From the NCBI GenBank assembly GCA_964520165.1, contig CAZFMU010000007.1, positions 1 through 23,688 of the forward strand: a DNA stretch of 23,688 bases. The letters are read 5' to 3'. Every line of letters starts with the position of its first letter. Position 1 is the first letter of the stretch. The DNA is from an uncultured Salinarchaeum sp. (GTDB lineage Archaea > Halobacteriota > Halobacteria > Halobacteriales > Salinarchaeaceae). The notes under the pieces were generated by a model. It was not told the origin of the DNA. It made no database searches and saw nothing but the letters and a program-made list of their open reading frames with translations. Positions 1,081 through 20,926 of this stretch are shown here, piece after piece. The position numbers were made by a program, and so were the translations under genes.

Positions 1081-3060
1081 TCAGGGATGTGTCTCCAACG
1101 CTAATCCTTGATCGTCGATGTAAAACTGCTCCCCGACGCCGTTGCCTTCCAATTGACTGAAGGCCTGACTGATGATGTGTCGGTCAAAGTCAGTGTTCTG
1201 GGCGACTTCCTCAAGCAACACTGTATCTCGTCCGACTTGGTTGATGTACTCTGATGTTATCCAAGCAACGCAGTCTTCAACAGTTTCAGCTTGGACAGCC
1301 CGCTGGAAAATCGAAATGTTCTCTGTGACGATTGGATCGGAGGAGTCATAGATCACTTCACCGCTCTGTAGGTCAACAAGGCAGACGCTTACATGGCGGC
1401 TGTATCGAGTTCTTGCGAGCTCATCCTCAACCACGTGCTGTTTGACCTCGCTAGTCCATCCAGTTGGTGAGGCGACACCAAGAAGATAAGGCACCTCCGT
1501 CTCATGGGCTTCGCGAACTACTCTATTCACGATATGAAGCAAATCGTCCAGATGTGCCGGCTCGGCGTCGAAACCGTGGCGAGCGTGAGCTTCCAGATGC
1601 GAGTGAACGCTCGCTTCGATAATCATCCGTGGGTGGCGGCTGAGTCCGAGGTATCGCTGTTCAGTCACCTCGTATCGTGCTGTCACATTGATCGGGTGCG
1701 TTTCGAGTGTTCCTCCATCTGCCTCCTCAAGCAGATTCTGCATGCGACCGGCTTCATTGCGGTGCTCGTTGTGTCCGTCCCAGTACTGGGAGGTAATGTC
1801 AACCACCTCTGCAGGTAGCTGGAGTGTCTCAAGTTCGTGCATTGTCGTGTCAAACCGACCGATATAATCCATCTCAAATAACCTGGCGGTTTCCGCCGTC
1901 ACAACGTTCTTTCCCTCAATCCCGCCGGTCGTATCGACAGCAGTTTCAATGTCTTCAAGACGGGTTTCGAGGTCGTCTTGGCGATCCTCAAACCGGTCGC
2001 GGGCATGTGCGATCTCCTCACGCTCTTGGCGGAGGCGATCAATCTCGGCTTGGAGTTCAGACCGCTGTTCCTGAAGCCGTTCAAGTTCGTCGGTTACAAC
2101 GTTCGCAGTCGCTTCGGCCACCGGTTCGTGTTCGGCTTCAAGGGCCTCCTGCCGCGCTGACTCCAACTCATCAATCTTGGCTTCCAGTGTCCTCATGAGC
2201 TCCTCTATCTGAGTAATTGATATATCCAACTGATCAACGCCACCAGTCCCAGAAGTATCAACCTCCTCAAGCGCTTCCCGGAGCGCTGCCGTATCGACTG
2301 ACGGCTGTGCAAGTTGACGTTCAATGCGATCAAGCGCCGCATTGAATTCACGCTGTTGTTGGCCAACTTGCTGTTCCAGGGTAGTTTCGAGGTCAGCTAA
2401 CTCTTCCTGAACGGCTGCTTGAATCTGTTCACGCTTTTCAGTCGCATCGGCCACAGCCCCGATCGCTTCCTCAATCTCCTCAACCATATGCTCAAGCCCG
2501 TGCGTTTCGACGTAGAGAAAAAACCCTTCGCGGATGCGATCACGCCGATCTTCATACCGATCAACAAGGCGCTCAATGACATCCTGTTGTACATCTGGAT
2601 GATCAATGAGAGCATCTATGTTGGCGATCTGGGTTGAAGTATACTCCTGAACAAGCTCATAGACTTCTCCATCCATCCGGCGGATGCGCCGCTCAATCTG
2701 CTCCTTGTCAAGCGCGTCAAACTGCTTGTACCGATCAAACTCAACTACTGCCTCCAACTCGGCGTCAATGAAATCATCCTGCATTGGCGGAGGGACATCG
2801 TCATCCGCATAGAACGACGCCGCAATAAGGAGCCGCGCGAGCCGCAGTGAACTCCGGAAATGATCAACCTCGCCGCTCGTAAGAAACTCAGGGCACTCCT
2901 CAAGAAACTCCCAACGCAACTCCTCCTCGTTGGCTTTGATTTCGTTGTATCGCTCGATACGTGAGCGCTCGGGCATACGCCGGAGCGCGGCCAGATCCTC
3001 CGCAAGGATTCGATCGGCCGTGTGTGTGAGGTCGTCAAGCCACGTCTGGCAGTCTGTCAT
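1081..3060 (-). CDS. Large acidic coiled-coil protein (659 aa) with globular N- and C-terminal regions; function unknown
   Basis: Long uninterrupted ORF with halophile-type acidic composition. ATG verified at 3058-3060. The central ~300 aa is heptad-like and rich in E/R/Q/L. The ATG overlaps the stop of upstream ORF 3057..3644 as ATGA, implying co-transcription. No Walker A or other recognisable catalytic motif. Confidence 0.75.
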   Translation of the reverse strand: MTDCQTWLDDLTHTADRILAEDLAALRRMPERSRIERYNEIKANEEELRWEFLEECPEFLTSGEVDHFRSSLRLARLLIAASFYADDDVPPPMQDDFIDAELEAVVEFDRYKQFDALDKEQIERRIRRMDGEVYELVQEYTSTQIANIDALIDHPDVQQDVIERLVDRYEDRRDRIREGFFLYVETHGLEHMVEEIEEAIGAVADATEKREQIQAAVQEELADLETTLEQQVGQQQREFNAALDRIERQLAQPSVDTAALREALEEVDTSGTGGVDQLDISITQIEELMRTLEAKIDELESARQEALEAEHEPVAEATANVVTDELERLQEQRSELQAEIDRLRQEREEIAHARDRFEDRQDDLETRLEDIETAVDTTGGIEGKNVVTAETARLFEMDYIGRFDTTMHELETLQLPAEVVDITSQYWDGHNEHRNEAGRMQNLLEEADGGTLETHPINVTARYEVTEQRYLGLSRHPRMIIEASVHSHLEAHARHGFDAEPAHLDDLLHIVNRVVREAHETEVPYLLGVASPTGWTSEVKQHVVEDELARTRYSRHVSVCLVDLQSGEVIYDSSDPIVTENISIFQRAVQAETVEDCVAWITSEYINQVGRDTVLLEEVAQNTDFDRHIISQAFSQLEGNGVGEQFYIDDQGLALETHP

Positions 3061-3644
3061 GGGTGGTCTGAAGGACTTTGGCTCGCCGCGTATTCGGCAA
3101 GTTCGGTTTCGAAAAACTCCGCAAGAAACGATGGAGCGGGCGGATAACCGGAGATGCGAATCCGGATGTCGACACCGTCCTCTGTCGTCTGCAATTGGTA
3201 CGACGCCTCCGCGCGCCCTTTTTTTGTGTACAGTTCGTACTCGTTACGACTCGCAGACTGGAGGACAGCCTTCTTCTTCGAGAGCACGTATTCAAGAAAG
3301 GACTCAACCGCATCCGCAGATGCATCGATGCTCTCCTCAACAGTGACCAACTGCGGCTCAACGTCGGCGTCAGCCGGCTCAATCCGGTACGTCTCAATCT
3401 GATCTTCAGGAATCTTCGAGAGGAGTCTCTCGTACAACTGCTCATGATTAACACCAGCGGCAAGACGGACGAGTCCGTCTGGGGTTGTAACTTCCCCGTC
3501 GTCCCAGTTGCTGAACAAGTACTCTGCACGCTTGCGCTCGGCGTCTTCCGTATACTCGACGACGTAAAGATATCGCTCGTCGCGACGATTTTCAACCATA
3601 GTGGGTACTTCGGCTGGGGATGGCGGCCGACTGACCAACACCAT
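3057..3644 (-). CDS. Hypothetical acidic protein (195 aa), first gene of a two-gene operon with 1081..3060
   Basis: ATG verified at 3642-3644. A TATA-like 'gttata' lies about 28-33 nt upstream on the minus strand (plus-strand 3672-3679). The stop overlaps the start of the downstream gene by 4 nt. Halophile-type composition. Confidence 0.7.
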   Translation of the reverse strand: MVLVSRPPSPAEVPTMVENRRDERYLYVVEYTEDAERKRAEYLFSNWDDGEVTTPDGLVRLAAGVNHEQLYERLLSKIPEDQIETYRIEPADADVEPQLVTVEESIDASADAVESFLEYVLSKKKAVLQSASRNEYELYTKKGRAEASYQLQTTEDGVDIRIRISGYPPAPSFLAEFFETELAEYAASQSPSDHP

Positions 3645-4131: not shown

Positions 4132-4782
4132 ATGGAACTTCGAGACTGGGTCAAAGAACGGTTCGGAACAACTGACACGGAAACGCTTATCGACGAAAGC
4201 GTGTACAGCCGTGATAACCTTCGCAAGGACAAAGCAAAGCTTGAGCAAAGCCTTCGACAGTTGGAAAGCGAGATGGATAAGCACGCAAAAAAGTACGAAA
4301 AGTTGCTTCAGAAAGGCTCCGATGCCGATGAGCTCAGCCGCCAGCAGTACGCGCAGAAGGCGAAATTCGAAAAAAAGAAGTACGAAATCAAGAAGAAAAA
4401 GCACAAGGCCGAAAGTATCAAGCTCGGAACAGTTATCTCAATCGAAGGAATGCGCGAAGTGCTGGCAATGCAAGATGGACAGGACTACGAGCTAGATCGC
4501 CTCTTCGATGGCGACCTTGACGCACAGGAGCTCCAGAGTCAGGTCATGGATGAGATGGCCCAGTTCGGGCTAGAGATTGACGACATGAAGCAGGTTCAGG
4601 AGGCACTTGATATCGAGATCATCGATCAGGATCTCGAAACGGGGGTCTCCGAGGAACTTGAGATTATGGAAGAAATGGCAGCAGGTGATATCTCAGAGGA
4701 ACAGATCGACATTGAAGAGAATGTCGACATTGAAGAGGAAGATATCAATCTTAGCGTCAATCAGCCAAGCCGGACACTCTAA
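4132..4782 (+). CDS. ESCRT-III / Snf7-family-like protein (216 aa)
   Basis: About 210 aa, all alpha-helical. The N-terminal half is basic (KFEKKKYEIKKKKHK) and the C-terminal tail is extremely acidic, which is the ESCRT-III charge asymmetry. Segments resemble Snf7-domain helices (LRKDKAKLEQSLRQLESEMDKHAKKYEKLLQKG; MDEMAQFGLEIDDMKQVQEALD). It is followed after 3 nt by a Vps4-like MIT-AAA ATPase. Confidence 0.6.
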   Translation: MELRDWVKERFGTTDTETLIDESVYSRDNLRKDKAKLEQSLRQLESEMDKHAKKYEKLLQKGSDADELSRQQYAQKAKFEKKKYEIKKKKHKAESIKLGTVISIEGMREVLAMQDGQDYELDRLFDGDLDAQELQSQVMDEMAQFGLEIDDMKQVQEALDIEIIDQDLETGVSEELEIMEEMAAGDISEEQIDIEENVDIEEEDINLSVNQPSRTL

Positions 4783-4785
4783 GTT

Positions 4786-5943
4786 ATGTCCCTTGAGCGG
4801 AGTGCGCAGAGGAAACATTTCGAGTCAGAGTATCAGCGATACCGGTATTTAGCCGAACAAGCACGGTCGGAGGGACACGTAGAGAAGGCAGCCCGGTATT
4901 ATCGCCAGTGTGCAAGCGTACTCACGAACTTAGCGGATCTTGAGTCAAGTTCGCGAATCACGCAAGAACGACTTGAACTCGCGCAGAATCTCGTCACAGC
5001 GGCCGATCAACTTGAGACCGATGGGGAGTTGACAAACGAAACGGTCGATAACGAACAAGAACCGGATCCGAAGACGCCTACAGATGAAGCACCTTCCACT
5101 TCCGAGGATCAACCATCTTCAAGCGACGAGGAGCCCTCAGCTACAGCGTATTTATCTGAGCCTCCGTCGCTTACCTTTACGGATGTAGGCGGCATGATAG
5201 AGTTGAAAGAGACACTCAAGGATCGGGTCATTGATCCTCTTGAGCGTCCAGAGTTGTACGAACAGTACGATTTGGGCGTAGTCAATGGCGTGTTGTTATA
5301 CGGCCCTCCTGGAACTGGGAAAACATACATCACGAAAGCCTTAGCCGGTGAACTTGAGTACAATTACATTGAGGCTCGCGCATCTGATCTCACAAGTTCA
5401 CTTGTTGGCGAGGCCGCTGACAACATGGCCGAGTTGTTCAAAGTCGCTAGAAACCACCAGCCGTGCCTCCTCTTTTTCGACGAGATCGACGCGATTGCCG
5501 CTGAACGGAGTGGCGGTGATCAAAAGACGATGAGCGAGAGCCAGATGATCACCCAGTTTTTGACTGAAATGTCAAATACGAAGGGAGAGGACGTGATTGT
5601 CGTCGGGGCAACCAATCTTCCCGATGATATCGACGGGGCGGCTTGGCGTCGGTTCGACGAGCGTATCAAGGTACCACCACCGGATGCCGCAGCACGAGTG
5701 GCAGTACTACGAATCCATCTTCGTGACCGACCGGTTCTGACCGAGCATATCGATTGGGACCATATCAAAGCGCTCACCGATGGATACTCTTCGAGTGATC
5801 TTGAACTCATCGCGGCAACAGCAGCACGCAAGGCGCTCAAGGAAGCTCGGGAGAACGGTGATGTTGTGCCGATCACTCAGGATCACATCGAAACGGCGAT
5901 TGAAGAGACTGACTCAAGTCTACAGGCATGGAATACGTCCTAA
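4786..5943 (+). CDS. Vps4/CdvC-like AAA+ ATPase with an N-terminal MIT domain
   Basis: The N-terminus (EGHVEKAARYYRQCASVLTNLADL) aligns with the Vps4/CdvC MIT three-helix bundle. An acidic S/T/P linker follows. The single AAA domain has Walker A GPPGTGKT, Walker B LLFFDEID, sensor-1 Asn (GATNLPDDID) and an SRH with arginine fingers (AAWRRFDERIKVPPPD), as in Vps4 (AIRRRFERRIYIPLPD). ATG verified at 4786, 3 nt after the stop of the previous gene. Confidence 0.9.
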   Translation: MSLERSAQRKHFESEYQRYRYLAEQARSEGHVEKAARYYRQCASVLTNLADLESSSRITQERLELAQNLVTAADQLETDGELTNETVDNEQEPDPKTPTDEAPSTSEDQPSSSDEEPSATAYLSEPPSLTFTDVGGMIELKETLKDRVIDPLERPELYEQYDLGVVNGVLLYGPPGTGKTYITKALAGELEYNYIEARASDLTSSLVGEAADNMAELFKVARNHQPCLLFFDEIDAIAAERSGGDQKTMSESQMITQFLTEMSNTKGEDVIVVGATNLPDDIDGAAWRRFDERIKVPPPDAAARVAVLRIHLRDRPVLTEHIDWDHIKALTDGYSSSDLELIAATAARKALKEARENGDVVPITQDHIETAIEETDSSLQAWNTS

Positions 5944-6018: not shown

Positions 6019-6735
6019 TTACTGTTTGGCTTCGGTTGTCGCAAGCGCGACAGTAATGTTGTCGCTCCCGCCGTTGTTGTTTGCCTGAGCAATGAGATTA
6101 TCCGCCGCTGCGGACAGTGAGGTCGCATTCGTAACAGTGCGGTAGATCTGCTCATCGCTGACCTCCTCGGAGAGACCGTCAGAACACAGTAGGAGCGTTC
6201 CGGATACCGTATGCTCGTAAAAGTCCGGGTCAATATCTTCATTTGTACCGATCGCCTGCGAGACCACATTCCGCTGTGGATGTGTCTCTGCTTCGGCTTC
6301 GGTAATGTGGCCGGCTTCAACCAGCTGCTGGACAAGCGACTGGTCGGTGGTCACTTGGACAATGTTATCCCCGATATGATAGGCGCGACTATCGCCGACA
6401 TTGGCAATGATGGCCTCCTGCTCATTGATCACAGCCGCCACTAACGTGGTGCCCATCCCACGGTCGCCACCGGCATCTGGATGGCTGCGGACGGCAGTGT
6501 TGGCGGCAGTGATACCGGAAGCGAGGGCTACTTTCCAGTCACCGGTAGTGGTACGAAGCCTTTCCTTGAGCGTAGAGAGCGTCCGTTGACTCGCGACATC
6601 ACCAGCTGCGTGCCCACCCATCCCGTCTGCAACAGCGATTAGACCAACACCGTCAATTTTGACGGCGGTAACAGCGTCCTCGTTGTGTGAGCGCTGTCGT
6701 CCGGTGTCCGTTCGGGTTGCGAAGTGAACGGTCAT
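6019..6735 (-). CDS. PP2C-family (PPM) Ser/Thr protein phosphatase
   Basis: Canonical PPM motifs are present: TDTGRQRSHNED, AVADGMGGHAAGDVAS, DSRAY, LLCSDGL and GGSDNIT. ATG verified at 6733-6735. 238 aa. Confidence 0.9.
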   Translation of the reverse strand: MTVHFATRTDTGRQRSHNEDAVTAVKIDGVGLIAVADGMGGHAAGDVASQRTLSTLKERLRTTTGDWKVALASGITAANTAVRSHPDAGGDRGMGTTLVAAVINEQEAIIANVGDSRAYHIGDNIVQVTTDQSLVQQLVEAGHITEAEAETHPQRNVVSQAIGTNEDIDPDFYEHTVSGTLLLCSDGLSEEVSDEQIYRTVTNATSLSAAADNLIAQANNNGGSDNITVALATTEAKQ

Positions 6736-6826: not shown

Positions 6827-7528
6827 TTACTCTTGAGGAAGTGACGCACCACAATACGGACAGAAGGCTGCGTCAGAGCTAATTTCTTCGCCGCACTGTG
6901 GACAGAATTGCTGCGTTGACGACGACTGTGCATTCGCCGCTGCGGCGACTTCCTCCGGGCTCTGTGTCTCAACTCGCCCCGAGTCGGATCCATCGGCGAT
7001 ATCTGAGCGGTTGACAACACTATCTTCGACGGTCGTTGACCGATCGATACTATCGCCCATGACGACATCCCCGTCTCCCCGATGGACAACGTTGTTTTCG
7101 ACTCTAGCTTCCGAGACTGTTTCCAAATGAAATGAGGTCTGATACCCGATCGTGATCGTCGCATCATTCGATACCGTCTGAAGGTGACCTTGTGGAACGT
7201 CATGGGTCGTTCCCTGCGACTCAACGGTCACACCGTTGGAGTTCGCCTGGTTGCGAATTTCAATCGTCTGGTCCTGCGGTACCACGACGACCGGAGCGAG
7301 ACCCTCTTTCTTTCGCGATACCGTCACATCGCCAATACCGAGATCAATGATATCTGAAGGGGTTTCAGCGATAATGGTCGTTCCGTCGCCCGAGTCACGA
7401 TAGAGTTCGATACGTCCGTCTATCGGGAGTTTTCCGCCGTCCCCGGAGGCAACCGACAGATATCCTTTCATACGTATTGTGTGAGTTAATTGGAATTCGT
7501 CGTTCGGTTGAGGTTGTTGGGTAGCCAA
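6827..7528 (-). CDS. FHA-domain (phosphothreonine-binding) protein with a C-terminal Cys4 zinc ribbon
   Basis: The N-terminal region matches the FHA signature: G-R, then S-R (VTVSRKKEG), then N-G (ANSNGVTV). The C-terminus is CPQCG-x10-CPYCG. The track start at 7526-7528 is TTG. An in-frame ATG at 7469-7471 (MKGYLSV...) is the more likely true start. The architecture resembles Sulfolobus ArnA, which also combines a zinc finger with an FHA domain. Confidence 0.75.
   Translation of the reverse strand: MATQQPQPNDEFQLTHTIRMKGYLSVASGDGGKLPIDGRIELYRDSGDGTTIIAETPSDIIDLGIGDVTVSRKKEGLAPVVVVPQDQTIEIRNQANSNGVTVESQGTTHDVPQGHLQTVSNDATITIGYQTSFHLETVSEARVENNVVHRGDGDVVMGDSIDRSTTVEDSVVNRSDIADGSDSGRVETQSPEEVAAAANAQSSSTQQFCPQCGEEISSDAAFCPYCGASLPQE
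7002..7040. repeat. DNA-level copy of a shared C-terminal tail module (encodes ...TTVEDSVVNRSDI...), paralogous to 9019..9047 and more weakly to 8671..8724
   Basis: tctgagcggttgacaacactatcttcgac (7002-7030) matches tctgagcggttaatgacactatcacttac (9019-9047) at 23 of 29 nt. Both lie within different genes. Confidence 0.45.
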
Positions 7529-7613
7529 ACCTGTAATCCGGAATCGTGTCCCATGCGTTGGCCCGTATTGCTAAGACATAGCCACGATGGCATAAAATTC
7601 AGGATACTACACA

Positions 7614-8378
7614 CTAGTTACGAAGGTACAGTCGCCGTACTCGCTCGGCCAGTTGACCGATCCGCTTGCTACGTTGTGGATCCAGCTGGTCAGATGCTAT
7701 CGCAGCAGCTTTGAGTTGCTGCTGTTGGGCCTCTAATTCTGACTGAACGTCCTCGTACGCGTCATCATCAACCGGAGTATCTTTGACAAATGAGTGGACC
7801 TCATCAAGTCGTTTACGACAGGCCTCCGCTGAATCTTCGCAGGCTCGCTCAAGATGTTCGGTTAGGGAGACGGCTAAGTAATCCGCAGAGGCATCCTGGA
7901 GCCGATCAACGGACTCGGTTGCGGCGAGATCGGCCAATCCGTCCTGCGCCATCTTGCGTTCTGTCTGTCGAGTCGCATCGTCAATGACGGTGTGGTAAGT
8001 TTCTTCAATCTCCTCGCGAAGCGTGTCAGAGTCTACTCTGGCTGCGTAGGTTTGCAAGCGATCTAAGGCCCGTTCTCGTTCGTCTGAGCGGTTGCCATCT
8101 TGTGCTACATCACAGTGCACGGAGATGGCTGTTGGGACCACCCCGGGAGCTGACTGGCCAACAAGCTTGTCAAGCTGCGATTGAGCAAGTGTGCGCTCCT
8201 CTTCGTAAGTCGCATCCCTAGCTACACGCGCAAGTGTTCGCCCGATCGCTGCACGCTGTTGATCATCAACCTCAGAGTAGAGGTCGCCAAGACGCTCAAG
8301 AGCCTCTTTGCGATCGGAGGAATACGTCGATTCACGAGCCTGACGCCGCAGTTCACTTACTGAGTCATGAAGAGCCAT
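7614..8378 (-). CDS. Hypothetical alpha-helical repeat protein (255 aa; HEAT/PBS-like repeats)
   Basis: The ORF track extends to 8603, but the first 75 residues are non-acidic and hydrophobic. The first ATG that yields a halophile-type protein (MALHDSVSELRRQ...) is at 8376-8378 and was verified. Helical motifs of the form ALERLGDLY / ALDRLQTYA repeat. Confidence 0.6.
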   Translation of the reverse strand: MALHDSVSELRRQARESTYSSDRKEALERLGDLYSEVDDQQRAAIGRTLARVARDATYEEERTLAQSQLDKLVGQSAPGVVPTAISVHCDVAQDGNRSDERERALDRLQTYAARVDSDTLREEIEETYHTVIDDATRQTERKMAQDGLADLAATESVDRLQDASADYLAVSLTEHLERACEDSAEACRKRLDEVHSFVKDTPVDDDAYEDVQSELEAQQQQLKAAAIASDQLDPQRSKRIGQLAERVRRLYLRN

Positions 8379-8439
8379 TGAACAGTCCCCTTGGTTGGAC
8401 GAACCTATATAATAGAACAGACATATTCTTTGTGGTGGC

Positions 8440-8997
8440 CTACGGTGGGGTCGATTCACCACAGTCCGGACATTGATCTGCCGCAGACGGGAGTTCTGCT
8501 CCACAGAATATGCAGTATTGGTTGTCCTCAGAGTCACGATCGGCAGGAGCATTAGATGTTGAACTCCCGCTATAGCTATTATCCGAGGACACAGTAATCT
8601 CATCCTTGTTGTCGGTGACCGTCATATTAGAAGCAACGCTATCGGTAATGGTGGTTTCCTCGGCTTGAGTATTAATATTCGATTTATTGACGACGCTGTC
8701 CTCAATAACCGTGCTGTGATCGTTCACTGTAGTGTGTTCATCAGTTTTCGTAGTGCTGTTGTCTACTCGCGTGATGTCGGTCTGCTTAACCGTCTTGTCC
8801 TGCTGACCGCTAACGATATCTCCGCTGACGTGAGTTACATCATCTGTAGTCGAGTCGAGAATATTGGCGGCAAGTTTATCCACCGTGTCATTATTACTGT
8901 TGGTCTCAACGGGGGCTGATGGGTCCCCCTCAGAACATTTTGGACATTCAGCTCCTGTATATACCTCGTTGTGTTGTTCGCAGTACGGCATAGTCAC
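8440..8997 (-). CDS. Zinc-ribbon protein with a Thr/Ser/Asp-rich low-complexity core
   Basis: N-terminal C-x15-CPKC and C-terminal CIFCG-x10-CPDCG. The middle is extremely T/S/D/N-rich and carries the shared EDSVVNKSNI tail motif. The track start at 8995-8997 is GTG and overlaps the upstream stop as GTGA. An ATG two codons downstream (8989-8991) is an alternative start. Confidence 0.65.
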   Translation of the reverse strand: MTMPYCEQHNEVYTGAECPKCSEGDPSAPVETNSNNDTVDKLAANILDSTTDDVTHVSGDIVSGQQDKTVKQTDITRVDNSTTKTDEHTTVNDHSTVIEDSVVNKSNINTQAEETTITDSVASNMTVTDNKDEITVSSDNSYSGSSTSNAPADRDSEDNQYCIFCGAELPSAADQCPDCGESTPP

Positions 8998-10157
8998 TCG
9001 TTCGTATTGTCGTCAACGTCTGAGCGGTTAATGACACTATCACTTACTTCCGTGCTCTCGTCGTTTACCTCGGTGCTCTGATCAATTTCGGTTATGCTTT
9101 GATCAACCGCGGCAATTTCAGTCGTGTCGACGGTTTTGTCCTGAGACCCGACAACCACGTCACCGTCAATAGTAGTATCACCTCCAAGCTCATCGAGACT
9201 CGTGATACCGGCGTATCTGAACTCTCCAATCGACGGCGGATCCTTACGTGTCGATTCAATGGCATCCTCGAACATGTTCCGGATGGCAGCGTAGTGATCG
9301 TCAGGGAGCTCGTTGACTGTCCGCCAGGCCCGATCAGCCACTTTTCCATCGCCGGCATCGGTGATGTCAACTGAGTACAAGCCCTGCTCCCAGACCGCGT
9401 CAATATCGAAAACCCAGAGCCCCACGGCATCAATATTACTATTTGATTTGATATGTTCGAATAAGTGTGGGGTCAAGAGCCCGACGCAGTCAGCAATTCG
9501 AATAGAACCGGTCATCGATCGAATGGTAGGATTTACGACCGCTACGTTCGCGCCTAGTGTGATATCTCCCGCAGCACTGACTGAAAATGCAAATAGGTCC
9601 GACGCTTCGATGTCCCCCTCCGAGTACACATCGCCGAGAATAACTGTCCGTGCGTTCGTCCGAAATGCGTCGGTTGCGTGCACCGAGCCGTATACGACAG
9701 TTGGACGCTCGACTGTGATATGCGCTCCAATTAAGTCACCATAGATCGCGACTGGCTGAGCTTCCCAGTCGTCAAAGGTTGATGCAGGAGCCACAATATC
9801 TATTTGCCCCTTTGAAATCACAGAGCCAGCAATACGCGCCCCGAGAGTAGACGCTTCATTAGCCGCCGGGTGAGCCGCCCCGCCGTGCTCAATAGCGACA
9901 CGATCACGGCCGAATATGTCACCGCTGACCTGTACACCGTACTTACAGTCAACTTCGGCGGCATAGATACCGATTGCCTCAGGCGGATTATATACCGACC
10001 CCTTTTCGAGAGTCACTTGCCAGTTGAGTTGGCGAAACGCGTTTTCCCGTGGAACGAGTGCCTCCTCGCACGTTTGATCAGCCTTGACAGTTGCAAAATT
10101 CGTGTTGTCTGTTTCGACTTTGTCCGACGTGATTGCTCCCTGAAGTTTGTCAGGCAC
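8994..10157 (-). CDS. Bactofilin-like beta-helix (polymer-forming cytoskeletal) domain protein with a Thr/Asp-rich tail
   Basis: The central ~170 aa consist of tandem short hydrophobic/Gly repeats of the bactofilin (DUF583) type: VQVSGDIFGRDRVAIEHG, ARIAGSVISKGQIDIV, VAIYGDLIGAHITVE, TVILGDVYSEGDIEASD and FSVSAAGDITLGANVAVV. The GTG start at 10155-10157 overlaps the upstream stop by 8 nt, and there is no in-frame ATG for about 210 codons. The C-terminus carries the shared DSVINRSDV motif. Confidence 0.6.
   Translation of the reverse strand: MPDKLQGAITSDKVETDNTNFATVKADQTCEEALVPRENAFRQLNWQVTLEKGSVYNPPEAIGIYAAEVDCKYGVQVSGDIFGRDRVAIEHGGAAHPAANEASTLGARIAGSVISKGQIDIVAPASTFDDWEAQPVAIYGDLIGAHITVERPTVVYGSVHATDAFRTNARTVILGDVYSEGDIEASDLFAFSVSAAGDITLGANVAVVNPTIRSMTGSIRIADCVGLLTPHLFEHIKSNSNIDAVGLWVFDIDAVWEQGLYSVDITDAGDGKVADRAWRTVNELPDDHYAAIRNMFEDAIESTRKDPPSIGEFRYAGITSLDELGGDTTIDGDVVVGSQDKTVDTTEIAAVDQSITEIDQSTEVNDESTEVSDSVINRSDVDDNTNE
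9019..9047. repeat. Second DNA-level copy of the shared tail module (encodes ...SDSVINRSDV...)
   Basis: See 7002..7040. Confidence 0.45.
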
Positions 10158-11148
10158 GTGCGGTCACCTCCGCGGTGTCCTCGGTTGTTGTAGCGTCTGT
10201 TGTCCTCTGTTTGTGATTGCCTTCTGCCTCAATCTCGTACGTTCGTAGTGCCTCAACAAATCGATCCAACGCGATATCTTCCTCTATAAGAAACTGGGGA
10301 TCGACATATGCACTGTCATCGCGGCTAGCAAGCGCATCACGCACCTCATCCTGTGCAACATACGACCGTACTGCATCAGCCATTTTGCTGTAGCCGTGTA
10401 CGGGATGCTCTCGGAGGTAGTCTCGGTATGGTTGGGAACGAGTTGGGGATTCGACATCATCAGAACGCCCTAAAATGGAATAAACGCGGAGTTCTTCGCC
10501 GTCATCTGTCTCAATGCCAACGACCCAAAAGGGAACTGTTATCTGCGCGGTATCACTCATTGTTGGGAGATCCGTCTGGAGTGACGCAATCGTATCTGCG
10601 GTCGCGGAGCGGTCATCAAGGAACTGATCAATCTGTTCGAAGTAGTTATTCCGCGCAGAGAGAATAGCATCAATACGATCACGATAGGTCTCATTTGTCG
10701 TGTTAGCAAGATTTGACGACTGACTGGCGACTGTTGAACGAGCCTCACGGATGTGATCAAACTCATCGTTAACTGTCTTGAAGGTATCACCGTGGCCGCC
10801 GATCGAATTCAAAAACCGATTTTTTAGACGCTTGATACTCCCGCGGTAGTCATCAAGCACCTCTTTGACGCGGTCTTCGTACTCCTGTCGCTTGCGTTCA
10901 ACCTCTTCTCTAAGTTGATCTTTGAGATCTTCGATTGCCTGACGTTCGGCCGTTGCTTTCTTGTGCTCAACATCACGAATTTGATGTTTGAGTTGTTTGA
11001 CCTCGTCGCTAAGCTGATCAACAGCACTGTTTGTCTCTCGGATTTCGCGTTTGAGATCATCAATCTGATCCGCAACAGCATCGCCTGCGGCCCGTCCGAT
11101 GCGGTGTTCGTCTACGTTTACTGTGACGTCCTGCTTGTCAGACATCAT
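10150..11148 (-). CDS. Hypothetical coiled-coil protein (332 aa)
   Basis: ATG verified at 11146-11148 (MMSDKQ). It overlaps the upstream gene's stop as ATGA. The N-terminal ~100 aa is heptad-like and E/R/K/Q-rich. The C-terminal half is mixed alpha/beta. Confidence 0.7.
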   Translation of the reverse strand: MMSDKQDVTVNVDEHRIGRAAGDAVADQIDDLKREIRETNSAVDQLSDEVKQLKHQIRDVEHKKATAERQAIEDLKDQLREEVERKRQEYEDRVKEVLDDYRGSIKRLKNRFLNSIGGHGDTFKTVNDEFDHIREARSTVASQSSNLANTTNETYRDRIDAILSARNNYFEQIDQFLDDRSATADTIASLQTDLPTMSDTAQITVPFWVVGIETDDGEELRVYSILGRSDDVESPTRSQPYRDYLREHPVHGYSKMADAVRSYVAQDEVRDALASRDDSAYVDPQFLIEEDIALDRFVEALRTYEIEAEGNHKQRTTDATTTEDTAEVTARA

Positions 11149-12692
11149 AGATCACCCAGCTGCTGCTCAATCTTGCGAGCCGTATCATAATCTGACTTGA
11201 TTTCGAAGTAGCGTTGCTCAGCGTCATCTTTGATTTGCTCGTATTGCGTGAGATCGATCATCTTCTGTTCTTTTGTCTGCCGAATCTCCTCGGCCTCCTG
11301 CTCAAGATCTTCAACGCTGTCCATGATCGGATCACGGAATGCATAGTAGAGGCTCCGCCATACCTCGCCGAAAAGTGCGCCACTATCAGCAACCGCAACG
11401 GGATCAACTGATCCGTGGACATCGCAGTAGCCTTGCTGGCCAAGGTCGTCAAGTCGGTTGTACGCACGCCTAAGTTCATCGTCAAGTTCAGGGATAGCTG
11501 CGGCAATGTCATCACGGATCTGGCCGGTGAAGTCCGACTCAGCACCACGATTGAGATCGGAGTCGCTGAGGGCCATGCCGAGACTCCCACTTTCAGCGCT
11601 TAGGATCTCGTCGACAAGATTGAGCTCGTCACGGATCGTCTCGATCCGATCTTCAAGACACTGTGGACAGACCTGCTTTTTCCCTGCAGTAGTGATCTGG
11701 TTGGCGTGATCGTCGTAGTGCGCCTCAACACGCTGTTGATTCGTCCGAAGGCGGGTCACTAGCTCCGTCGTAATCTCTTCCACACGGTCGCGACTCGCCT
11801 GCGCCTGCTCAAGCATATCGCCGCTCACCGCCTGTTCCTCAACGCCACGAATATCATCTACGGTCTCCTCACACTCGTTAAGCTGCTGACGAACCGATAC
11901 CTCTGGAATATCACGAGAAGGAGCCAAGAGCGAGTTACGCGATAGTTGTCTTATACTTTGTGCCACTTGGTTGTTTGCATGAACTGCTGCAGTAATCGTA
12001 TCACGTTCAATATTGCCTGCAACAGCGGCCATCGAATCAATCTGGTTGATGATCGGCTGCTCAAGACGGCGGTGGTCAGTAGCGTCCGGCGCGAACTGGG
12101 TAGCAACCGACGGATCAATGATAGATTCCTTACCGAAGGCCTCGTCATACTGTTGTTTGTAGGCAACAACTTCTTGTTGATTATCAAACAACAGTTCAGA
12201 GTCAATATATGCAAGTTCAAGATTTGTTTTAGGGGCAGTGTTCAGCCCATCGAAGATCATGTGCTGATCCTGGTAAGGGATCAAATAGAGAGGAACCCCT
12301 ATTTGTGAAACGAACGAAACGGTTCCATCTGGCTCGTTCGTCTCAAGCTTCGATCGCTGGGTGAGGATTAGCTCTTTCGCATCTTGATACTTACTAAATG
12401 CGTAGATACCGACACCAAGCGCAGCGACGAGACCTATACTGGCAAGGATCAATGCTTCCCCGGCCAAACCAATAATGATAAGCAGTATACCACCGGCCAC
12501 CCCACCGCCGCCGAGTTGTTGCATGCGCCGCTGTCGGGATTCAGCCTCAGTAATTGTATCCTCATACCGTTTCTGTCGGTCGAAGTAGCTGCCTGCAGCG
12601 TCGGCAAACGCCATGGCAAGTACTTCTGTTCGAGCGCGTTCATGCGGTATCCGTTCCCCAGCGTCTACCATTCCCGGAGCTTGATATGACAT
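11145..12692 (-). CDS. Membrane protein with an N-terminal 2-TM hairpin and a long helical cytoplasmic region (515 aa)
   Basis: The ORF track extends to 12779, but the first ATG giving a halophile-type N-terminus (MSYQAPGMVDAG...) is at 12690-12692 and was verified. Hydrophobic segments: GVAGGILLIIIGLAGEALILASIGLVAALGVGIYAF. It heads a run of four tightly coupled genes with overlapping start/stop codons (12692 to 8440). Confidence 0.7.
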   Translation of the reverse strand: MSYQAPGMVDAGERIPHERARTEVLAMAFADAAGSYFDRQKRYEDTITEAESRQRRMQQLGGGGVAGGILLIIIGLAGEALILASIGLVAALGVGIYAFSKYQDAKELILTQRSKLETNEPDGTVSFVSQIGVPLYLIPYQDQHMIFDGLNTAPKTNLELAYIDSELLFDNQQEVVAYKQQYDEAFGKESIIDPSVATQFAPDATDHRRLEQPIINQIDSMAAVAGNIERDTITAAVHANNQVAQSIRQLSRNSLLAPSRDIPEVSVRQQLNECEETVDDIRGVEEQAVSGDMLEQAQASRDRVEEITTELVTRLRTNQQRVEAHYDDHANQITTAGKKQVCPQCLEDRIETIRDELNLVDEILSAESGSLGMALSDSDLNRGAESDFTGQIRDDIAAAIPELDDELRRAYNRLDDLGQQGYCDVHGSVDPVAVADSGALFGEVWRSLYYAFRDPIMDSVEDLEQEAEEIRQTKEQKMIDLTQYEQIKDDAEQRYFEIKSDYDTARKIEQQLGDL

Positions 12693-12787: not shown

Positions 12788-12943
12788 ATGCACGTTCAGG
12801 TGCTTGAATTCGAGTACAACGCTACAGACGCCAAATCAATTGAGACGCGCCTGAATAACTATTTCTCACACCACGAAGTCACAAACGTTGAGGTTGTTGA
12901 TACTGGTGGTCGAATCCTTGTCTTTTGTTTCTCCGCGGAGTGA
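12788..12943 (+). CDS. Possible small acidic protein (51 aa; MHVQVLEFEYNATDAKSIETRLNNYFSHHEVTNVEVVDTGGRILVFCFSAE)
   Basis: ATG at 12788. Halophile-like composition. It occupies a 312-nt gap between two minus-strand genes. There is no homology evidence, so it could equally be non-coding promoter space. Confidence 0.25.
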   Translation: MHVQVLEFEYNATDAKSIETRLNNYFSHHEVTNVEVVDTGGRILVFCFSAE

Positions 12944-13004: not shown

Positions 13005-14837
13005 TTACTCAAGCTGAGTGCCACACTCAATGCAGTACGTCGTACCAGGATCGTTTTGACTCCCACAGTCCGGACAGGTAATCGCTTCTTCGGCCGAGGA
13101 GCCTCTCTCAGAAGATTCGGCTTCACTCTCCGATGGTCCACCGCTCTGCACAATAGTCGTATCGCCACCAGAGGACGCTCCCGAATCGCCACTAACGATG
13201 ACATTATCGGAGGTATCCTCAGCAGCGGCAGCTGCCGCCTCACCCATGTTGTCCATCGCGGATTCGGTAGTCTCCTGCATCCGGTCCATTGAGTCGTCCA
13301 TCATCTCGTTCATCTCTTCGCGGAACTGCTTTTGATCCTTGACGCGCTGGCGTTCCTTTTCGGCACTATTAGCCTCCTGTCGCGCCTTCGCGAGTTCGTC
13401 GCTGTTCTGTGCCCCTAGCGAGTCGAGTTGATCCGCATTGAGGTGTTCGGCCTTGTCCATCTTCGCAAGTTCTGTCAGCGCGTCGGTATCCGTGTCGTCG
13501 AGACTCGCGAGCGTTTGTGCGTCCACGTTGTCGCGGGCACTAAGTCGCTTCTTTTCGACAGCGATATCATGCGACTCCTTTTCCATCTCAAGTTCTTGAT
13601 TGCGAGCCTTCTTGTCGAGTTTTTGCTCGTCTTTTTTCTGCTTGATGTCGAGCAGATCCTCTATTTCGGACACGTCCTGCTGGTGCTCGTCGGACCGCTC
13701 CTTCATCGACTGCTCGTGTTTGATATCGCGTCGATTGACGGCCGACTCCGTCCGATGGGTCTTCAGCTGTTCGTCGTGTTCGACGGTTTCCTGCTCGGCG
13801 TTGTGTGCGTGTCGCCGCTGCTGGTCCTCAAGATCCTGTTCGTGATCAAGTGCCTGGGACTTGATTTCGTGGTCGGCCGCCTGTTCGACCGTCTCGCGAC
13901 GCACCCGCTGTTCGTGTGTGTGTACCGTATCGTCGGTCTCGCGTTCGCGCTCGCGACGGTCAAGTGCCGCCGTCTGGTCAGCCAGTTCTTCTCTCTCCTC
14001 CCGGATATCGAGTTCCTTGTTGCGTTCGCGGAGTTCATCGCGGTCGTCCGCGTAGTCGAACGACAACAGTTCAATGAGTGACAGGCCATTTCGCTGGAAT
14101 GCGTCCTGGCACACTGTCTCGAGTTCGTCGCGAATTCGCTGTCGGACAGCCTGGTTACCATAGAGTTCATCGTGGGAATACTCGTGCAGCGCCGACTCAA
14201 CAGCATTGCGCATGGCCCGTCCGAGATCTTGGTTGAGGGCTCCGGTCGTCAGGGCGTCGCGATCTGCCATCATCGACTCGAAGAACCGTTCGAAGTCGTC
14301 GATCGACACGACGACTTCGAGTGTTGCCGATACAGGATAATCGTTTTGCGTACGAATATCCTCGAAAGTTCGCCGAACCGTCTTCTGTCCTTCGTCAACA
14401 AGGATAATGGTGAGATCGGGGGATCGGCGGAGTTCAACGATACGCTGGGGAAGGCTATCAAGTGTGTGCTGGCCAGGGCCGAGCGTTTCGGTGAGTTCGC
14501 CGTTCTCAAGCAGTAAGGCCCGGGTGCCCTGCTGGATCCGGATACTCTCGGTCCGCGTGAGTTTGCCGAGGAGGCTACCGGCACCGAGTACCTGCTCGTC
14601 AACACGTTTCGCAAACTCATCATCAGCCAGTCGCCAGCCGCCGCTTGTAGGAGCCTTCCCACTACTTTCATGTTCGGCACCTGCGGCAAGTTCCTGGCCA
14701 CAGTTACGACAGAACTGCGCCTCTACGGGGTTTGACTCGCCACAACTCGGGCAAGTGCGTACAAGCGGCTCTCCACATTCCTTGCAGAACTCGGCCTGTG
14801 CTGATACATCGGCGTTGCAGTTTGGACAGTGAGGCAT
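13005..14837 (-). CDS. Flotillin-like protein: N-terminal double zinc ribbon, SPFH/band-7-like domain, long E/R/Q-rich coiled coil, and C-terminal zinc ribbon
   Basis: ATG verified at 14835-14837. The N-terminus has CPNC..CKEC..CPSC..CRNC and the C-terminus CPDCG..CIECG. Residues ~95-250 follow the band-7 pattern: SIRIQQGTRALLLENGELTETLGPGQHTL, then LTIILVDEGQKTV, then TFEDIRTQNDYPVSATLEVVVSIDDFERFF, then a helical segment. About 250 aa of charged coiled coil follow, resembling the flotillin EA-repeat domain. Confidence 0.8.
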   Translation of the reverse strand: MPHCPNCNADVSAQAEFCKECGEPLVRTCPSCGESNPVEAQFCRNCGQELAAGAEHESSGKAPTSGGWRLADDEFAKRVDEQVLGAGSLLGKLTRTESIRIQQGTRALLLENGELTETLGPGQHTLDSLPQRIVELRRSPDLTIILVDEGQKTVRRTFEDIRTQNDYPVSATLEVVVSIDDFERFFESMMADRDALTTGALNQDLGRAMRNAVESALHEYSHDELYGNQAVRQRIRDELETVCQDAFQRNGLSLIELLSFDYADDRDELRERNKELDIREEREELADQTAALDRRERERETDDTVHTHEQRVRRETVEQAADHEIKSQALDHEQDLEDQQRRHAHNAEQETVEHDEQLKTHRTESAVNRRDIKHEQSMKERSDEHQQDVSEIEDLLDIKQKKDEQKLDKKARNQELEMEKESHDIAVEKKRLSARDNVDAQTLASLDDTDTDALTELAKMDKAEHLNADQLDSLGAQNSDELAKARQEANSAEKERQRVKDQKQFREEMNEMMDDSMDRMQETTESAMDNMGEAAAAAAEDTSDNVIVSGDSGASSGGDTTIVQSGGPSESEAESSERGSSAEEAITCPDCGSQNDPGTTYCIECGTQLE

Positions 14838-15145: not shown

Positions 15146-17353
15146 GTGACCAGGTGGTCGCGTCGGGCAATACTCGGCGGCATTATCGGTGGGACCGGCG
15201 GAGCGATGGGGCTGACCGAACGAGCCCGGGCCCAGTCCGGCCGTCGCAAGTGGCCCTCATTTGCGTGTGACACGCAGAACACGGGGGCAACCCCTGCACG
15301 GCCGCCAGAAACCTCGCCAGCAATAGAGTGGACAGCTGAGGTGAACGGTGCCGTGCTGTCGACAGCGGCGATAGCCGACGAACGGGTGATTGTTGGCGAC
15401 GAAACAGGTGTCCTTCACGCCCTTAACGCGTTGTCGGGAGAGCGGCTGTGGACGTTTGACACCGCAGATCGCATTAGGTCGACACCCACGGTTCGAAACG
15501 GAACAGTTGTCGTTGGGAGCGATGACGGAACGCTCTATGGACTCTCGACGACCGGCGAGCACTACTGGGAGTTCGAAACAGAGGGTCCGATTGTTGCGTC
15601 ACCGGCCCTCGTAGACGGCACTGTTTATGCCGGCAGCTACGATGGAACAGTATATGCTATTGACGTGACCAACGGTGATCCAGTGTGGATGACGGAGACG
15701 GGGGGGCTGATTGCATCGTCCGCAGCGGTGGCCGACGATACAGTGTATCTCGGCAGTAGCGACCAGCAGATGTATGCGCTCGACGCAGCGACGGGAGAGT
15801 CCGTGTGGCAAACCGAGGTGGAGGCTGAGATCGCCGCGTCGCCAGCAGTCAGCGGCGGAACCGTATTTATCAATACCGGGAGCGGGGAAACATATGCATT
15901 CGATGCTCGTTCCGGAAACCAACGGTGGTCCTTCGAGATGGACGGGATGGCCGGCACCTCGCCCGCAGTAATGGACGGGACAGTGTACCTGAGTGAAGGG
16001 CTAACCGGCACACGGGTTCATGCGGTGAGCGTGACGACAGGAACGCATAGGTGGACGGTTAATACCGAAGCGGCGGTTCAGGGCTCGCCGGCGGTCGGAG
16101 GCAAAACTATGTACATTGGTACCGGTGATGGACAGCTGTATGCCATTGGCACGTCCAATGGACAGGTGCGATGGACGATCAATCTTGATGGCCCCATTCA
16201 AGCCGGTCCAGCACTCGTTAATGGTGGGGTCATCGTTGGGACGACGGATGCAACCGTGTACGCCCTGGGAAACGAACAGTTCATGAGTGTCCCGGGCGGC
16301 CCGGGGCTCCCGGGAGGCGTCGGTGCACTGATAACCGCGGGACTCGGTGTCGGCGGCGGGACTTGGTGGTGGTGGCGTCAACGGGGTCGCTCATCTTCCA
16401 CCGACACTTCCAAGCAGTCCCAATCCGATTCTGCGGGGTCGTCAACCACAAGCGGTTCTGAGGCGGCTGCCGATATTACGCCGACCGAGATTCCCGACGA
16501 AATGACAGATCACCCGAAGATTCCTGAGACCGTGCCAGCACCAGCGAAGCGCTCGCTTGAGTATCGCTCGTTCCAGACGAAGACGCAGATCGGGAGTGGT
16601 GGCAATGCTGATGTCTATCGTACGACAACAGCTGACGGAGCCGAACTTGCAGTCAAAGAACCACATGTTACGGGAACGATCCACACAGAGACCGTCGAAC
16701 AGCTCCTCGAAGAGGCCGAGACGTGGGGTCAACTTGATGACCACGACCACATCGTGAAGATAGTCGACTACGGTAGCGATCCAGTACCCTGGATCGCCAT
16801 GGAGTATATGGACGGAGGGACGCTTACGCAACGAGCAGGCAATATGGGCGACCGGCAGGCACTCTGGACAGCAATCGCCGTCACAAAAGCGGTACGACAC
16901 GCCCACCGTCGTGGGGTTGCGCATCTTGATCTCAAGCCAGCGAACATCCTCTTTCGATCAGTCAAGGACAGATGGGACGTTCCCAAGGTCGCCGACTGGG
17001 GCCTTTCGAAGCACCTCTTAGAGCACTCACATAGCATCGAGGGACTCTCGCCACAGTACGCCGCCCCAGAGCAGTTTGATCAGGATCGAGGAGTCGCCGA
17101 TAACGTGACCGATATCTACCAGTTGGGAGCCGTTCTGTACGAACTATTCACTGGGCGACCACCGTTCGAGGGGCGACCGACCGAGATCATGCAGTCAGTA
17201 CTTGCCACCGAACCGCAACCACCGAGTTCTCTCGTAGAAGGGGATCTTCCACCGGCACTCGATGATATCCTTATGAAGGCCCTGGCGACCAGTAAAGGAG
17301 ATCGGTACGACGATATTGTCTACCTCAGAGACGATCTGCGGGATCTGTATTAG
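15146..17353 (+). CDS. Receptor-like Hanks-type Ser/Thr protein kinase: Tat signal, 8-blade PQQ-like beta-propeller ectodomain, single TM, cytoplasmic kinase domain (catalytically intact)
   Basis: GTG start. The N-terminus MTRWSRRAILGG is a twin-arginine motif. Eight repeats of the form V(Y/V)xGSxDGxxYAxDxxxGxxxW are present. A TM helix (GALITAGLGVGGGTWWWW) is followed by an S/T-rich juxtamembrane linker. Kinase motifs: Gly loop GSGGNADVY, the conserved Lys in ELAVKEP, helix-C Glu (EEAETW), catalytic loop HLDLKPANIL, DWG in place of DFG, and APE (YAAPEQ). Confidence 0.9.
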   Translation: MTRWSRRAILGGIIGGTGGAMGLTERARAQSGRRKWPSFACDTQNTGATPARPPETSPAIEWTAEVNGAVLSTAAIADERVIVGDETGVLHALNALSGERLWTFDTADRIRSTPTVRNGTVVVGSDDGTLYGLSTTGEHYWEFETEGPIVASPALVDGTVYAGSYDGTVYAIDVTNGDPVWMTETGGLIASSAAVADDTVYLGSSDQQMYALDAATGESVWQTEVEAEIAASPAVSGGTVFINTGSGETYAFDARSGNQRWSFEMDGMAGTSPAVMDGTVYLSEGLTGTRVHAVSVTTGTHRWTVNTEAAVQGSPAVGGKTMYIGTGDGQLYAIGTSNGQVRWTINLDGPIQAGPALVNGGVIVGTTDATVYALGNEQFMSVPGGPGLPGGVGALITAGLGVGGGTWWWWRQRGRSSSTDTSKQSQSDSAGSSTTSGSEAAADITPTEIPDEMTDHPKIPETVPAPAKRSLEYRSFQTKTQIGSGGNADVYRTTTADGAELAVKEPHVTGTIHTETVEQLLEEAETWGQLDDHDHIVKIVDYGSDPVPWIAMEYMDGGTLTQRAGNMGDRQALWTAIAVTKAVRHAHRRGVAHLDLKPANILFRSVKDRWDVPKVADWGLSKHLLEHSHSIEGLSPQYAAPEQFDQDRGVADNVTDIYQLGAVLYELFTGRPPFEGRPTEIMQSVLATEPQPPSSLVEGDLPPALDDILMKALATSKGDRYDDIVYLRDDLRDLY

Positions 17354-17418
17354 CCATGAGCGGGATGGTGCTGTACTCGGATCGCCCGCTGAACTATCGG
17401 CCGCGGTGGTGGAGATAA

Positions 17419-19614: not shown

Positions 19615-19644
19615 TTTATAGATCGGTTGAACAGTAGACGTTGT

Positions 19645-20229: not shown

Positions 20230-20230
20230 T

Positions 20231-20803: not shown

Positions 20804-20816
20804 CGGCCGGCGGTTG

Positions 20817-20825: not shown

Positions 20826-20926
20826 CGTTATATAATCATACATTCGCGTCTGGAGTGAACAGCTACAAATTCCGACACACGTCGGTGAGAAGCCGCACAA
20901 TGACGCTATACTCTCAGCGAACGTAA

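Follow-up and report, generated by a model that had tools for sequence, protein, structure and literature searches.

Why do three proteins with different heads, encoded in one haloarchaeal operon, carry the same acidic, Ser/Thr-rich segment, and what could this segment do? The question is raised by a stretch of 23,688 nucleotides (nt) from an uncultured Salinarchaeum sp. (GenBank assembly GCA_964520165.1, contig CAZFMU010000007.1, positions 1 to 23,688 of the forward strand), the whole of which is called the window below. A tightly packed operon of seven genes lies on its minus strand at about 6.0-12.7 kb (Table 1). Three of the products share the segment, which we call the module: a beta-solenoid protein, a zinc-ribbon protein (ZnR2) encoded immediately downstream, and a protein which combines an FHA fold with a zinc ribbon (FHA-ZnR). 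The analysis presented here shows that the module is maintained by selection on the protein and that the copies in the beta-solenoid protein and ZnR2 evolve in concert. It leads us to suggest, tentatively, that the module is a tag by which different proteins are brought together.

A module common to three proteins

The module consists of GDVVxGxQxK, a variable number of DxSTTxV heptads and a near-invariant core, TxVxDSVVNRS[DE][IV]G. The window has three nonapeptides from this core, DSVINRSDV (9015-9041), DSVVNKSNI (8674-8700) and DSVVNRSDI (6998-7024), all on the minus strand. The first-pass annotation of this DNA, made from the sequence, had seen that a tail motif recurs in the three proteins. 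This is confirmed, and the shared unit is larger than was described: 51 residues in the beta-solenoid protein, 51 in ZnR2 and 26 in the short form found in FHA-ZnR. A second motif, GD[VI]VxGxQDKTV, which it assigned to ZnR2 and the beta-solenoid protein, is indeed common to both, and a truncated form of it, GDVVMGDS, is also found in the third protein.

BLASTP aligns the beta-solenoid protein and ZnR2 with 49% identity across 63 residues (E=7e-14), FHA-ZnR and ZnR2 at E=5e-9 in an alignment which includes the zinc ribbon, and FHA-ZnR and the beta-solenoid protein over 21 residues (E=4e-4). A hidden Markov model (HMM) of the module, run against all six-frame open reading frames (ORFs) of the window, gave three matches, to exactly these three ORFs, and in other related loci it matches only the corresponding gene families. 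The BLASTP values and the specificity of the HMM show that the similarity is real and not low-complexity noise.

AlphaFold 2 (AF2) models were made of single chains with orthologue alignments as input. In both models the module has a pLDDT (predicted local distance difference test) of about 30-45 beside confidently folded domains; the tail of the beta-solenoid protein is at about 30 and the FHA-ZnR copy below 50. Because of these values the module is predicted to be intrinsically disordered on its own.

The protein is conserved, the DNA is not

The first-pass annotation also held that the module is conserved at the nucleotide level, with 23 of 29 nt identical between 7002-7030 and 9019-9047, and took this as a sign of recent duplication or gene conversion. 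The count is actually 22 of 29, and the best ungapped match between copies (25/32) has an identity similar to that of chance repeats in the same list. The DNA of the two long copies is 56% identical. At their identical, degenerate residues 9 of 27 codons are shared, to be compared with 9.4 expected from local codon usage, and the three pairwise codon-sharing tests on the 17-residue core gave P=0.10, 0.51 and 0.80. Conservation of the DNA is thus not borne out in the window. Synonymous sites are saturated and codons are shared at the level of chance, and it is therefore purifying selection on the protein, not recent copying, that maintains the similarity here.

The core is near-invariant in three gene families across genera, and the neighbouring linkers vary freely and cannot be aligned. 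In all three families a near-invariant Thr stands four residues before the Asp of DSVV. The module is kept in all 30 aligned orthologues of the beta-solenoid protein and in all 33 aligned orthologues of FHA-ZnR (36 homologues were found), the latter having one to four DSVVNRS units, so the motif does not vanish outside the window. The orthologues of ZnR2 have one to three DSVV-like units with a spacing of mostly 18-20 residues.

Adjacent copies evolve in concert

The recent copying which could not be traced in the window is found between adjacent copies in other genomes. In all 16 genomes with both copies complete, the modules of the beta-solenoid protein and ZnR2 are identical in length, at 43, 51, 53 or 67 residues. 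The rare lengths are 43 in Haloplanus, 53 at locus L020, where both copies have the same 'DV' insert, and 67 at L017, where both have the same extra heptads. The matching of lengths has a permutation P=2e-5 in a sample of which two Haloplanus loci are not independent. Modules from the same genome also have more identical residues in common than shuffled partners have (29.4 vs 27.2 of 51, P=0.00075), and adjacent copies share indels and lineage-specific substitutions. L017 has a tract with 58 of 60 nt identical and an excess of shared codons (P=0.0066), L020 has a similar excess (P=0.0078), and L027 has a conversion tract, with a run of 17 identical residues common to its two copies. Since conversion is tolerated, the copies can be regarded as interchangeable.

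Two unusual genes are instructive here. In a metagenomic homologue (P0003) the beta-solenoid and the C-terminal half of ZnR2 form one fused protein with its junction at the module; ZnR2 contributes a DSVV unit, linker and zinc ribbon, and its N-terminal CHCC finger is absent. This is the product expected of recombination between two module copies, and it looks like a deletion. At L019 (4338-5552) there is no ZnR2 gene, and the tail of the beta-solenoid protein retains the heptads with a degenerate core, EERTVTRSDAD; this is the sole such case seen.

Carriers of the module

A profile search of 1.84 billion representative proteins (E<=0.001) gave 35 matches, about 33 of them true and two to unrelated repeat proteins. 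All true matches come from hypersaline or haloarchaeal sources, and the module is confined to haloarchaea. Five architectures are found among them: about 21 proteins are of the ZnR2 type (CHCC finger, module, ribbon), 5 are beta-solenoid tails, 4 are of a transmembrane (TM) type with three membrane helices followed by module and zinc ribbon, 3 are FHA-fold proteins, and 1 has HEAT repeats, module and ribbon (P0106); there is also one fragment. The ZnR2 representatives appeared only by this profile search, a word-indexed search for ZnR2 homologues having given nothing. An unrelated protein of undefined domain at L015 also ends in a minimal module. The suggested association with zinc ribbons turns out to be general: in 27 of the 28 matches that are not beta-solenoids a ribbon follows on the C-terminal side of the module, with a variable linker between the two. 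P0106 was considered as a fusion relative of the 255-residue helical protein of the operon and rejected, as the two have no BLASTP relationship. No description of the module motif was found in the literature, in a search which included the motif strings.

The 42 homologues of the beta-solenoid protein are all from haloarchaea or hypersaline metagenomes, those with names belonging to Haloplanus, Halosimplex, Salarchaeum, Halobaculum and Haloarculaceae. ZnR2 is built of an N-terminal CHCC finger, an acidic linker, the module, a degenerate DSV unit, a linker and a C-terminal zinc ribbon. The same CxxHx(8)CPxC finger comes after the module in most aligned FHA-ZnR orthologues, where it is followed by the zinc ribbon, and the CxxC...CxxC pattern of the ribbon is kept in them.

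Gene context was compared in about 20 related loci, many of them short (genome-contig scan 4, metagenome scan 9). A unit of four genes is constant, in the order membrane/coiled-coil protein, coiled-coil protein, beta-solenoid protein and ZnR2, and it usually lies beside genes for Vps4-like, ESCRT-III-like, SPFH and helical proteins. The FHA-ZnR gene is found in the window and at L007, L014, L015 and L016. It is also found at L012/L013, together with PP2C and a giant PQQ-kinase and without the rest of the operon; a PP2C gene adjoins it or lies near it at L012/L013, L014 and L015. In the Haloplanus loci L001 and L004 the third module protein is of the membrane-anchored type instead.

The module as a proposed assembly tag

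Among the models considered, a shared interaction tag fits best, because a conserved segment stands in disordered and variable sequence, has several carriers, is matched in length between two partners, has interchangeable copies and has lost its core at L019, where the partner gene is absent. The fusion seen in P0003 and the resemblance of the neighbourhood to ESCRT loci also speak for it. We hypothesize that the module is a common assembly or docking tag which joins different heads and the beta-solenoid, probably at the membrane beside ESCRT-like/SPFH machinery, and we hold this with somewhat less than even confidence. The module, the linker and the C-terminal zinc ribbon form a portable cassette across the family, with the CHCC finger, the FHA-fold domain, the three-helix membrane anchor or the HEAT repeats as its head. 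Copies would pair mutually, or bind one common receptor, and the heads would in this way be gathered at a single site. The clearest candidate pair is the beta-solenoid tail and ZnR2, the product of the next gene downstream, because their module lengths are always exactly equal.

The gathering site would belong to a membrane-associated system, whose genes usually have those of Vps4-like, ESCRT-III-like and SPFH proteins as neighbours. As receptor one can think of the helical HEAT-like protein, the SPFH protein, an appendage-like protein of the arCOG08177 type or the FHA-fold domain. Ser/Thr phosphorylation would probably modulate the tag; such control is plausible because of the invariant Thr, the Ser/Thr-rich heptads, the kinases and PP2C in many loci and the presence of an FHA fold.

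Several observations speak against an assembly tag. Gene conversion between the two copies, which lie about 340 bp from each other, could have produced the equal lengths and the co-variation as a neutral side effect, and conversion tracts are in fact present at L017 (58/60 nt), L020 and L027. The third copy, in the FHA-fold or the TM protein, is not matched in length to the other two. Decay of the core without the partner is seen at one locus, and several contigs are short, so that gene absences are only local. It should be noted that AF2 gives the module no structure, a result which is uninformative on function.

Euryarchaeal ESCRT-like loci have been catalogued recently, and their accessory proteins have no assigned role. 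A tag would be an experimental handle on them: it predicts which proteins co-assemble, it offers a peptide for pull-down experiments, and it supplies candidate phosphorylation sites through which the machinery would be tied to the local kinases and phosphatase. Adjacent copies, being exactly matched in length, are a clean natural example of concerted evolution in a putative interaction segment. If the module is a docking code, it would show how adaptors can be recruited in archaeal ESCRT-associated systems without ubiquitin or eukaryotic motifs.

Other models for the module

A second model makes the module a phospho-Thr ligand which is phosphorylated by the local kinases and bound in trans by the FHA-fold protein, PP2C resetting the system; there might also be auto-inhibition in cis like that of GarA/OdhI. 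The first-pass annotation had arrived at a similar proposal, a phospho-dependent docking site for the co-encoded FHA protein, from a T-x-x-D/E spacing resembling that of optimal FHA ligands. The spacing agrees with this in part at most. The Thr which is almost invariant in all three families, and which in itself favours the model, lies four and not three residues before the Asp, and the Thr that would give T-x-x-D is not conserved. Three positions after the near-invariant Thr most beta-solenoid tails have Glu, whereas this residue varies in the ZnR2 and FHA-ZnR families. Many of the extra DSVVNRS units are without Thr.

The FHA fold itself is predicted with confidence, and FHA domains fill the first 44 places among its Foldseek matches in PDB, with GarA and DgcB among the best. 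Searches with FHA sequence profiles (Pfam PF00498 or related) gave no match for the window protein at E<=0.1 and none for the 33 family members at E<=10. A profile of the FHA-ZnR family finds no FHA chain in PDB at E<=10. The binding-site motifs were aligned by eye, from their order and spacing and not by structural superposition. In this alignment all 33 members have Ser52-Arg53 and Asn79, and 30 of the 33 have Gly80, which favours the ligand model. The same by-eye alignment has Ala35-Glu36 in the window protein in place of the canonical Gly-Arg, the Arg position being E in 18, R in 14 and Q in 1 of the 33 members, and Lys55 in place of the canonical His of Ser-x-x-His. The family falls into two types at the Arg position, (A/V)-E-T with VSRKK and A-R-(K/R/T) with VSR(L/P/R)x. 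The additional lysines found with Glu may make up for the missing Arg.

The gene context points both ways. A PP2C gene accompanies the FHA-ZnR gene, in many cases together with PQQ-kinases, and does so away from the operon too, as at L012/L013; ESCRT loci are linked to kinases and phosphatases according to Makarova et al. (2024). No FHA-like, PP2C or kinase gene is present within 10 kb in the loci of Haloplanus, Halosimplex (L003) and Salarchaeum (L006), which nevertheless keep every conserved module residue, and none of the 36 FHA-ZnR homologues bears one of these three genus names. The ligand model is thus weakened by the Glu at the Arg position, the lack of a profile match, the wrong Thr-Asp spacing and the fact that the module stays conserved in loci which lack FHA-like genes, and we consider it unlikely. 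The idea of docking survives from the earlier proposal; the FHA domain as the reader is not specifically supported.

A third model, which we find quite unlikely, regards the heptads and DSVV units as cryptic beta-solenoid or beta-roll rungs which fold on oligomerisation, for instance by extending or capping the beta-solenoid, with the zinc-ribbon proteins co-polymerising. Every heptad contains a single aliphatic residue, the DSVV units have a period of 18-20 residues, as is usual for the coils of a solenoid, turn-formers (NR, KD, DG, QG) stand between 'SVV' and 'S', and GSVISKGQI of the solenoid core resembles DSVINRSDV; the exact length match of paired copies would suit packing in register. 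AF2, which makes a high-confidence beta-helix of the solenoid core, gives the module no structure (pLDDT about 30), and the number of units is low, one to three in ZnR2 and up to four in FHA-ZnR. Module proteins also occur at L015 and L012/L013, whose available flanks yielded no beta-solenoid gene. The comparison of module and solenoid core by hhalign was not significant (E=0.28), and for this reason the idea that the module is demonstrably a duplicated solenoid rung was dropped.

That the module is a neutral, low-complexity acidic linker of halophiles, without function and kept similar only by gene conversion among nearby paralogous segments, would agree with its richness in D, E, S, T and V and with the conversion tracts demonstrable at L017, L020 and L027, but it is very improbable, and already strongly disfavoured, since in the window the residues are conserved with codon sharing at chance, which implies purifying selection on the protein, since the core is near-invariant across three families and different genera while the linkers beside it are not alignable, and since the copies in the FHA-ZnR and TM proteins are either kilobases distant or part of another locus.

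The operon and its neighbourhood

The features of the window are listed in Table 1. The first-pass annotation let ZnR2 begin in a GTGA overlap with the upstream gene. The overlap is present in the sequence. Since the orthologues begin with MPYC, however, translation probably starts from the ATG at 8991, which follows the stop codon of the upstream gene by 2 nt. The C-terminal ribbon of ZnR2 has its four Cys and scores below threshold with Pfam DZR and Zn_Ribbon_1 (17-19 bits). The longest ORF of the helical HEAT-like protein (7614-8603, minus strand, 329 residues) would overlap ZnR2 by 164 nt. A start at about 8381 is preferred, as orthologues and public gene calls begin with MALHDS/ALHDS (254-255 residues), and the overlap is then gone. 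Pfam, NCBIfam and PADLOC gave no match to this protein, and no family could be assigned. The same scans of the operon proteins gave no defence system and no named family, only zinc-ribbon, PP2C, AAA and coiled-coil noise. A scan of the region for promoters and terminators, which relies on bacterial consensus sequences, gave nothing informative.

Table 1. Positions of the module copies, their carriers and the neighbouring genes in the window (aa, amino acids)
Feature	Position	Strand	Remarks
Module copy 1	9012..9164	-	51 aa, GDVVVGSQDKTVDTTEIAAVDQSITEIDQSTEVNDESTEVSDSVINRSDVD; C-terminal tail of beta-solenoid protein, aa 332-382 of 387
Module copy 2	8671..8823	-	51 aa, GDIVSGQQDKTVKQTDITRVDNSTTKTDEHTTVNDHSTVIEDSVVNKSNIN; within ZnR2 protein
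Module copy 3, short form	6995..7072	-	26 aa, GDVVMGDSIDRSTTVEDSVVNRSDIA; within FHA-fold/zinc-ribbon protein
Beta-solenoid protein ('bactofilin-like' in first-pass annotation)	8994..10157	-	387 aa; module as bare tail
ZnR2 gene	8440..8991	-	183 aa from ATG; alternative GTG at 8997
CHCC zinc knuckle, ZnR2 N-terminus	8935..8982	-	CEQHNEVYTGAECPKC; present in ZnR2 orthologues
Degenerate second DSV unit in ZnR2	8617..8649	-	ITDSVASNMTV; 18 aa after first unit
ZnR2 C-terminal zinc ribbon	8458..8514	-	CIFCGAELPSAADQCPDCG; CxxC...CxxC kept in orthologues
FHA-ZnR gene (FHA fold, module, zinc ribbon)	6827..7471	-	214 aa from MKGYL; identical public 214-aa protein P0043
FHA-fold domain	7112..7471	-	aa 1-120 of 214; predicted eleven-stranded beta-sandwich FHA fold
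C-terminal zinc ribbon of FHA-fold protein	6848..6904	-	Pfam Zn_Ribbon_1, 39.3 bits vs cutoff 25
PP2C Ser/Thr phosphatase	6019..6735	-	last operon gene; Pfam PP2C, 58.8 bits
Helical HEAT-like protein	7614..8381	-	255 aa; orthologues in most related loci, adjoining module proteins
Coiled-coil protein	10150..11148	-	332 aa; always upstream of beta-solenoid gene
Membrane and coiled-coil protein	11145..12692	-	515 aa from MSYQAPG; first gene of four-gene unit
ESCRT-III-like gene	4132-4782	+	216-aa coiled-coil product
MIT-AAA, Vps4-like ATPase	4786-5943	+	AAA, 128 bits; N-terminal MIT best match but sub-threshold, E=0.012
Coiled-coil protein	1081-3060		659 aa
195-aa protein	3057-3644
SPFH/Band-7 protein	13005..14837	-	double zinc ribbon, coiled coil, C-terminal zinc ribbon; Pfam DZR and Band_7; in most related loci
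Ser/Thr kinases with PQQ beta-propellers	15146-17353, 17419-19614	+	Pfam Pkinase, PQQ; tandem paralogues
Third Ser/Thr kinase	20959-22476	+	Pfam Pkinase
Weak kinase-like ORF (fourth)	22666-23577	-

The ESCRT-III-like protein of 216 residues has no match to the Snf7 profile. By sequence, the nearest solved relatives of the AAA domain in the Vps4-like protein are the D2 domains of Cdc48/p97 (E about 1e-88). The kinase genes at 15146-23577 form an unusually dense cluster beside an ESCRT-like locus. At L012 (406-6444) and L013 (3-3047) the kinase is part of a protein of about 2012 residues with PQQ propellers and PKD domains, and there are no ESCRT-like genes in the available flanks.

A conserved gene for 51 residues, MHVQVLEFEYNATDAKSIETRLNNYFSHHEVTNVEVVDTGGRILVFCFSAE, lies at 12788-12943 on the plus strand, in the interval from the SPFH gene to the first operon gene, and orthologues of the same size are found in the same place at L001, L003, L008 and L016-L018. 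The SPFH protein, ZnR2 and the FHA-fold protein all have a short zinc ribbon of Zn_Ribbon_1/DZR type at the C-terminus, and the SPFH protein has a double one at its start as well. Zinc ribbons may be a second element common to the system.

Comparison with known systems

The type of locus is already known. Makarova et al. (2024, mBio 15:e00335-24; bioRxiv 10.1101/2024.02.06.579148) describe euryarchaeal 'Main' ESCRT loci which are linked to kinases and phosphatases, propose that phosphorylation is central to them, and list Haloplanus natans with Vps4 and ESCRT-III; the gene order of the window matches that of the Haloplanus loci. As in the 'Main' loci described there, the ESCRT-III-like gene precedes that of the putative MIT-AAA Vps4-like ATPase, and Ser/Thr kinases (some with PQQ) and PP2C are present. 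The proteins of 659 and 195 residues fit the descriptions given of arCOG09748 and arCOG08177 in size, order and coiled coil, a comparison made with no arCOG profile. The SPFH/zinc-ribbon protein resembles one which the same text describes for Meth_adaptin loci. The four-gene unit, the FHA-fold/zinc-ribbon family and the module are not described in the accessible portion of the paper. The FHA family mentioned in it, arCOG13166, is fused to a CdvA-like domain, whereas the FHA fold of the window is fused to module and zinc ribbon. In the parts of the literature open to us we found no description of the module, the zinc-ribbon cassette, the FHA-fold/ribbon family or the four-gene unit.

Bactofilins (PF04519) and halofilins (Curtis et al., 2024, PNAS; PMC11459167) were used for comparison with the beta-solenoid protein. 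They have a beta-helical core in common with it, and some databases label its homologues 'polymer-forming cytoskeletal' or 'DUF342'. The first-pass annotation called the protein bactofilin-like. Membership is not supported: there is no Pfam bactofilin match (DUF583, PF04519) at E<=0.1, and Foldseek against PDB gave weak, assorted beta-helix matches, the best at E=0.26 and none to a bactofilin. The neutral name beta-solenoid protein was chosen for these reasons.

The tails of GarA/OdhI and of DgcB bind the FHA domain after phosphorylation, as titles of PDB entries also indicate. GarA/OdhI and DgcB of Bdellovibrio resemble FHA-ZnR in having an FHA fold and a Ser/Thr-rich disordered segment in one chain, near Ser/Thr kinases and PP2C. 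They differ in that the segment of the window protein is C-terminal, is common to at least two other proteins and is followed by zinc fingers, and in that this protein has the canonical Arg and His replaced and matches no FHA sequence profile.

The indels and lineage-specific substitutions common to adjacent copies, with near-identical DNA tracts in some genomes, are features of paralogues which evolve in concert through gene conversion; the window differs in that no footprint of conversion is left there and protein selection holds the copies similar. A docking motif which evolves in concert is a familiar kind of thing. The closest conceptual parallels to an assembly tag are the MIT-interacting motifs of ESCRT-III, the late domains of viruses and the motifs which bind adaptin appendages, all of them short conserved motifs in disordered tails of several accessory proteins. 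The module is unrelated to them in sequence, longer (17-51 residues) and repeat-based, and it has no known receptor. Carried to its limit, the comparison gives a recruitment code in which a length-matched, self-pairing disordered tag zips zinc-ribbon adaptors, whose heads are an FHA fold, a membrane anchor, HEAT repeats or a CHCC finger, onto a beta-solenoid scaffold at ESCRT-III/Vps4/SPFH sites and is switched by multisite Ser/Thr phosphorylation. We put this forward as a doubtful, speculative extension of the assembly tag. If it is true, the recruitment code would be a prokaryotic functional counterpart of the motif-based recruitment of adaptors in eukaryotic trafficking, reached without any relationship in sequence.

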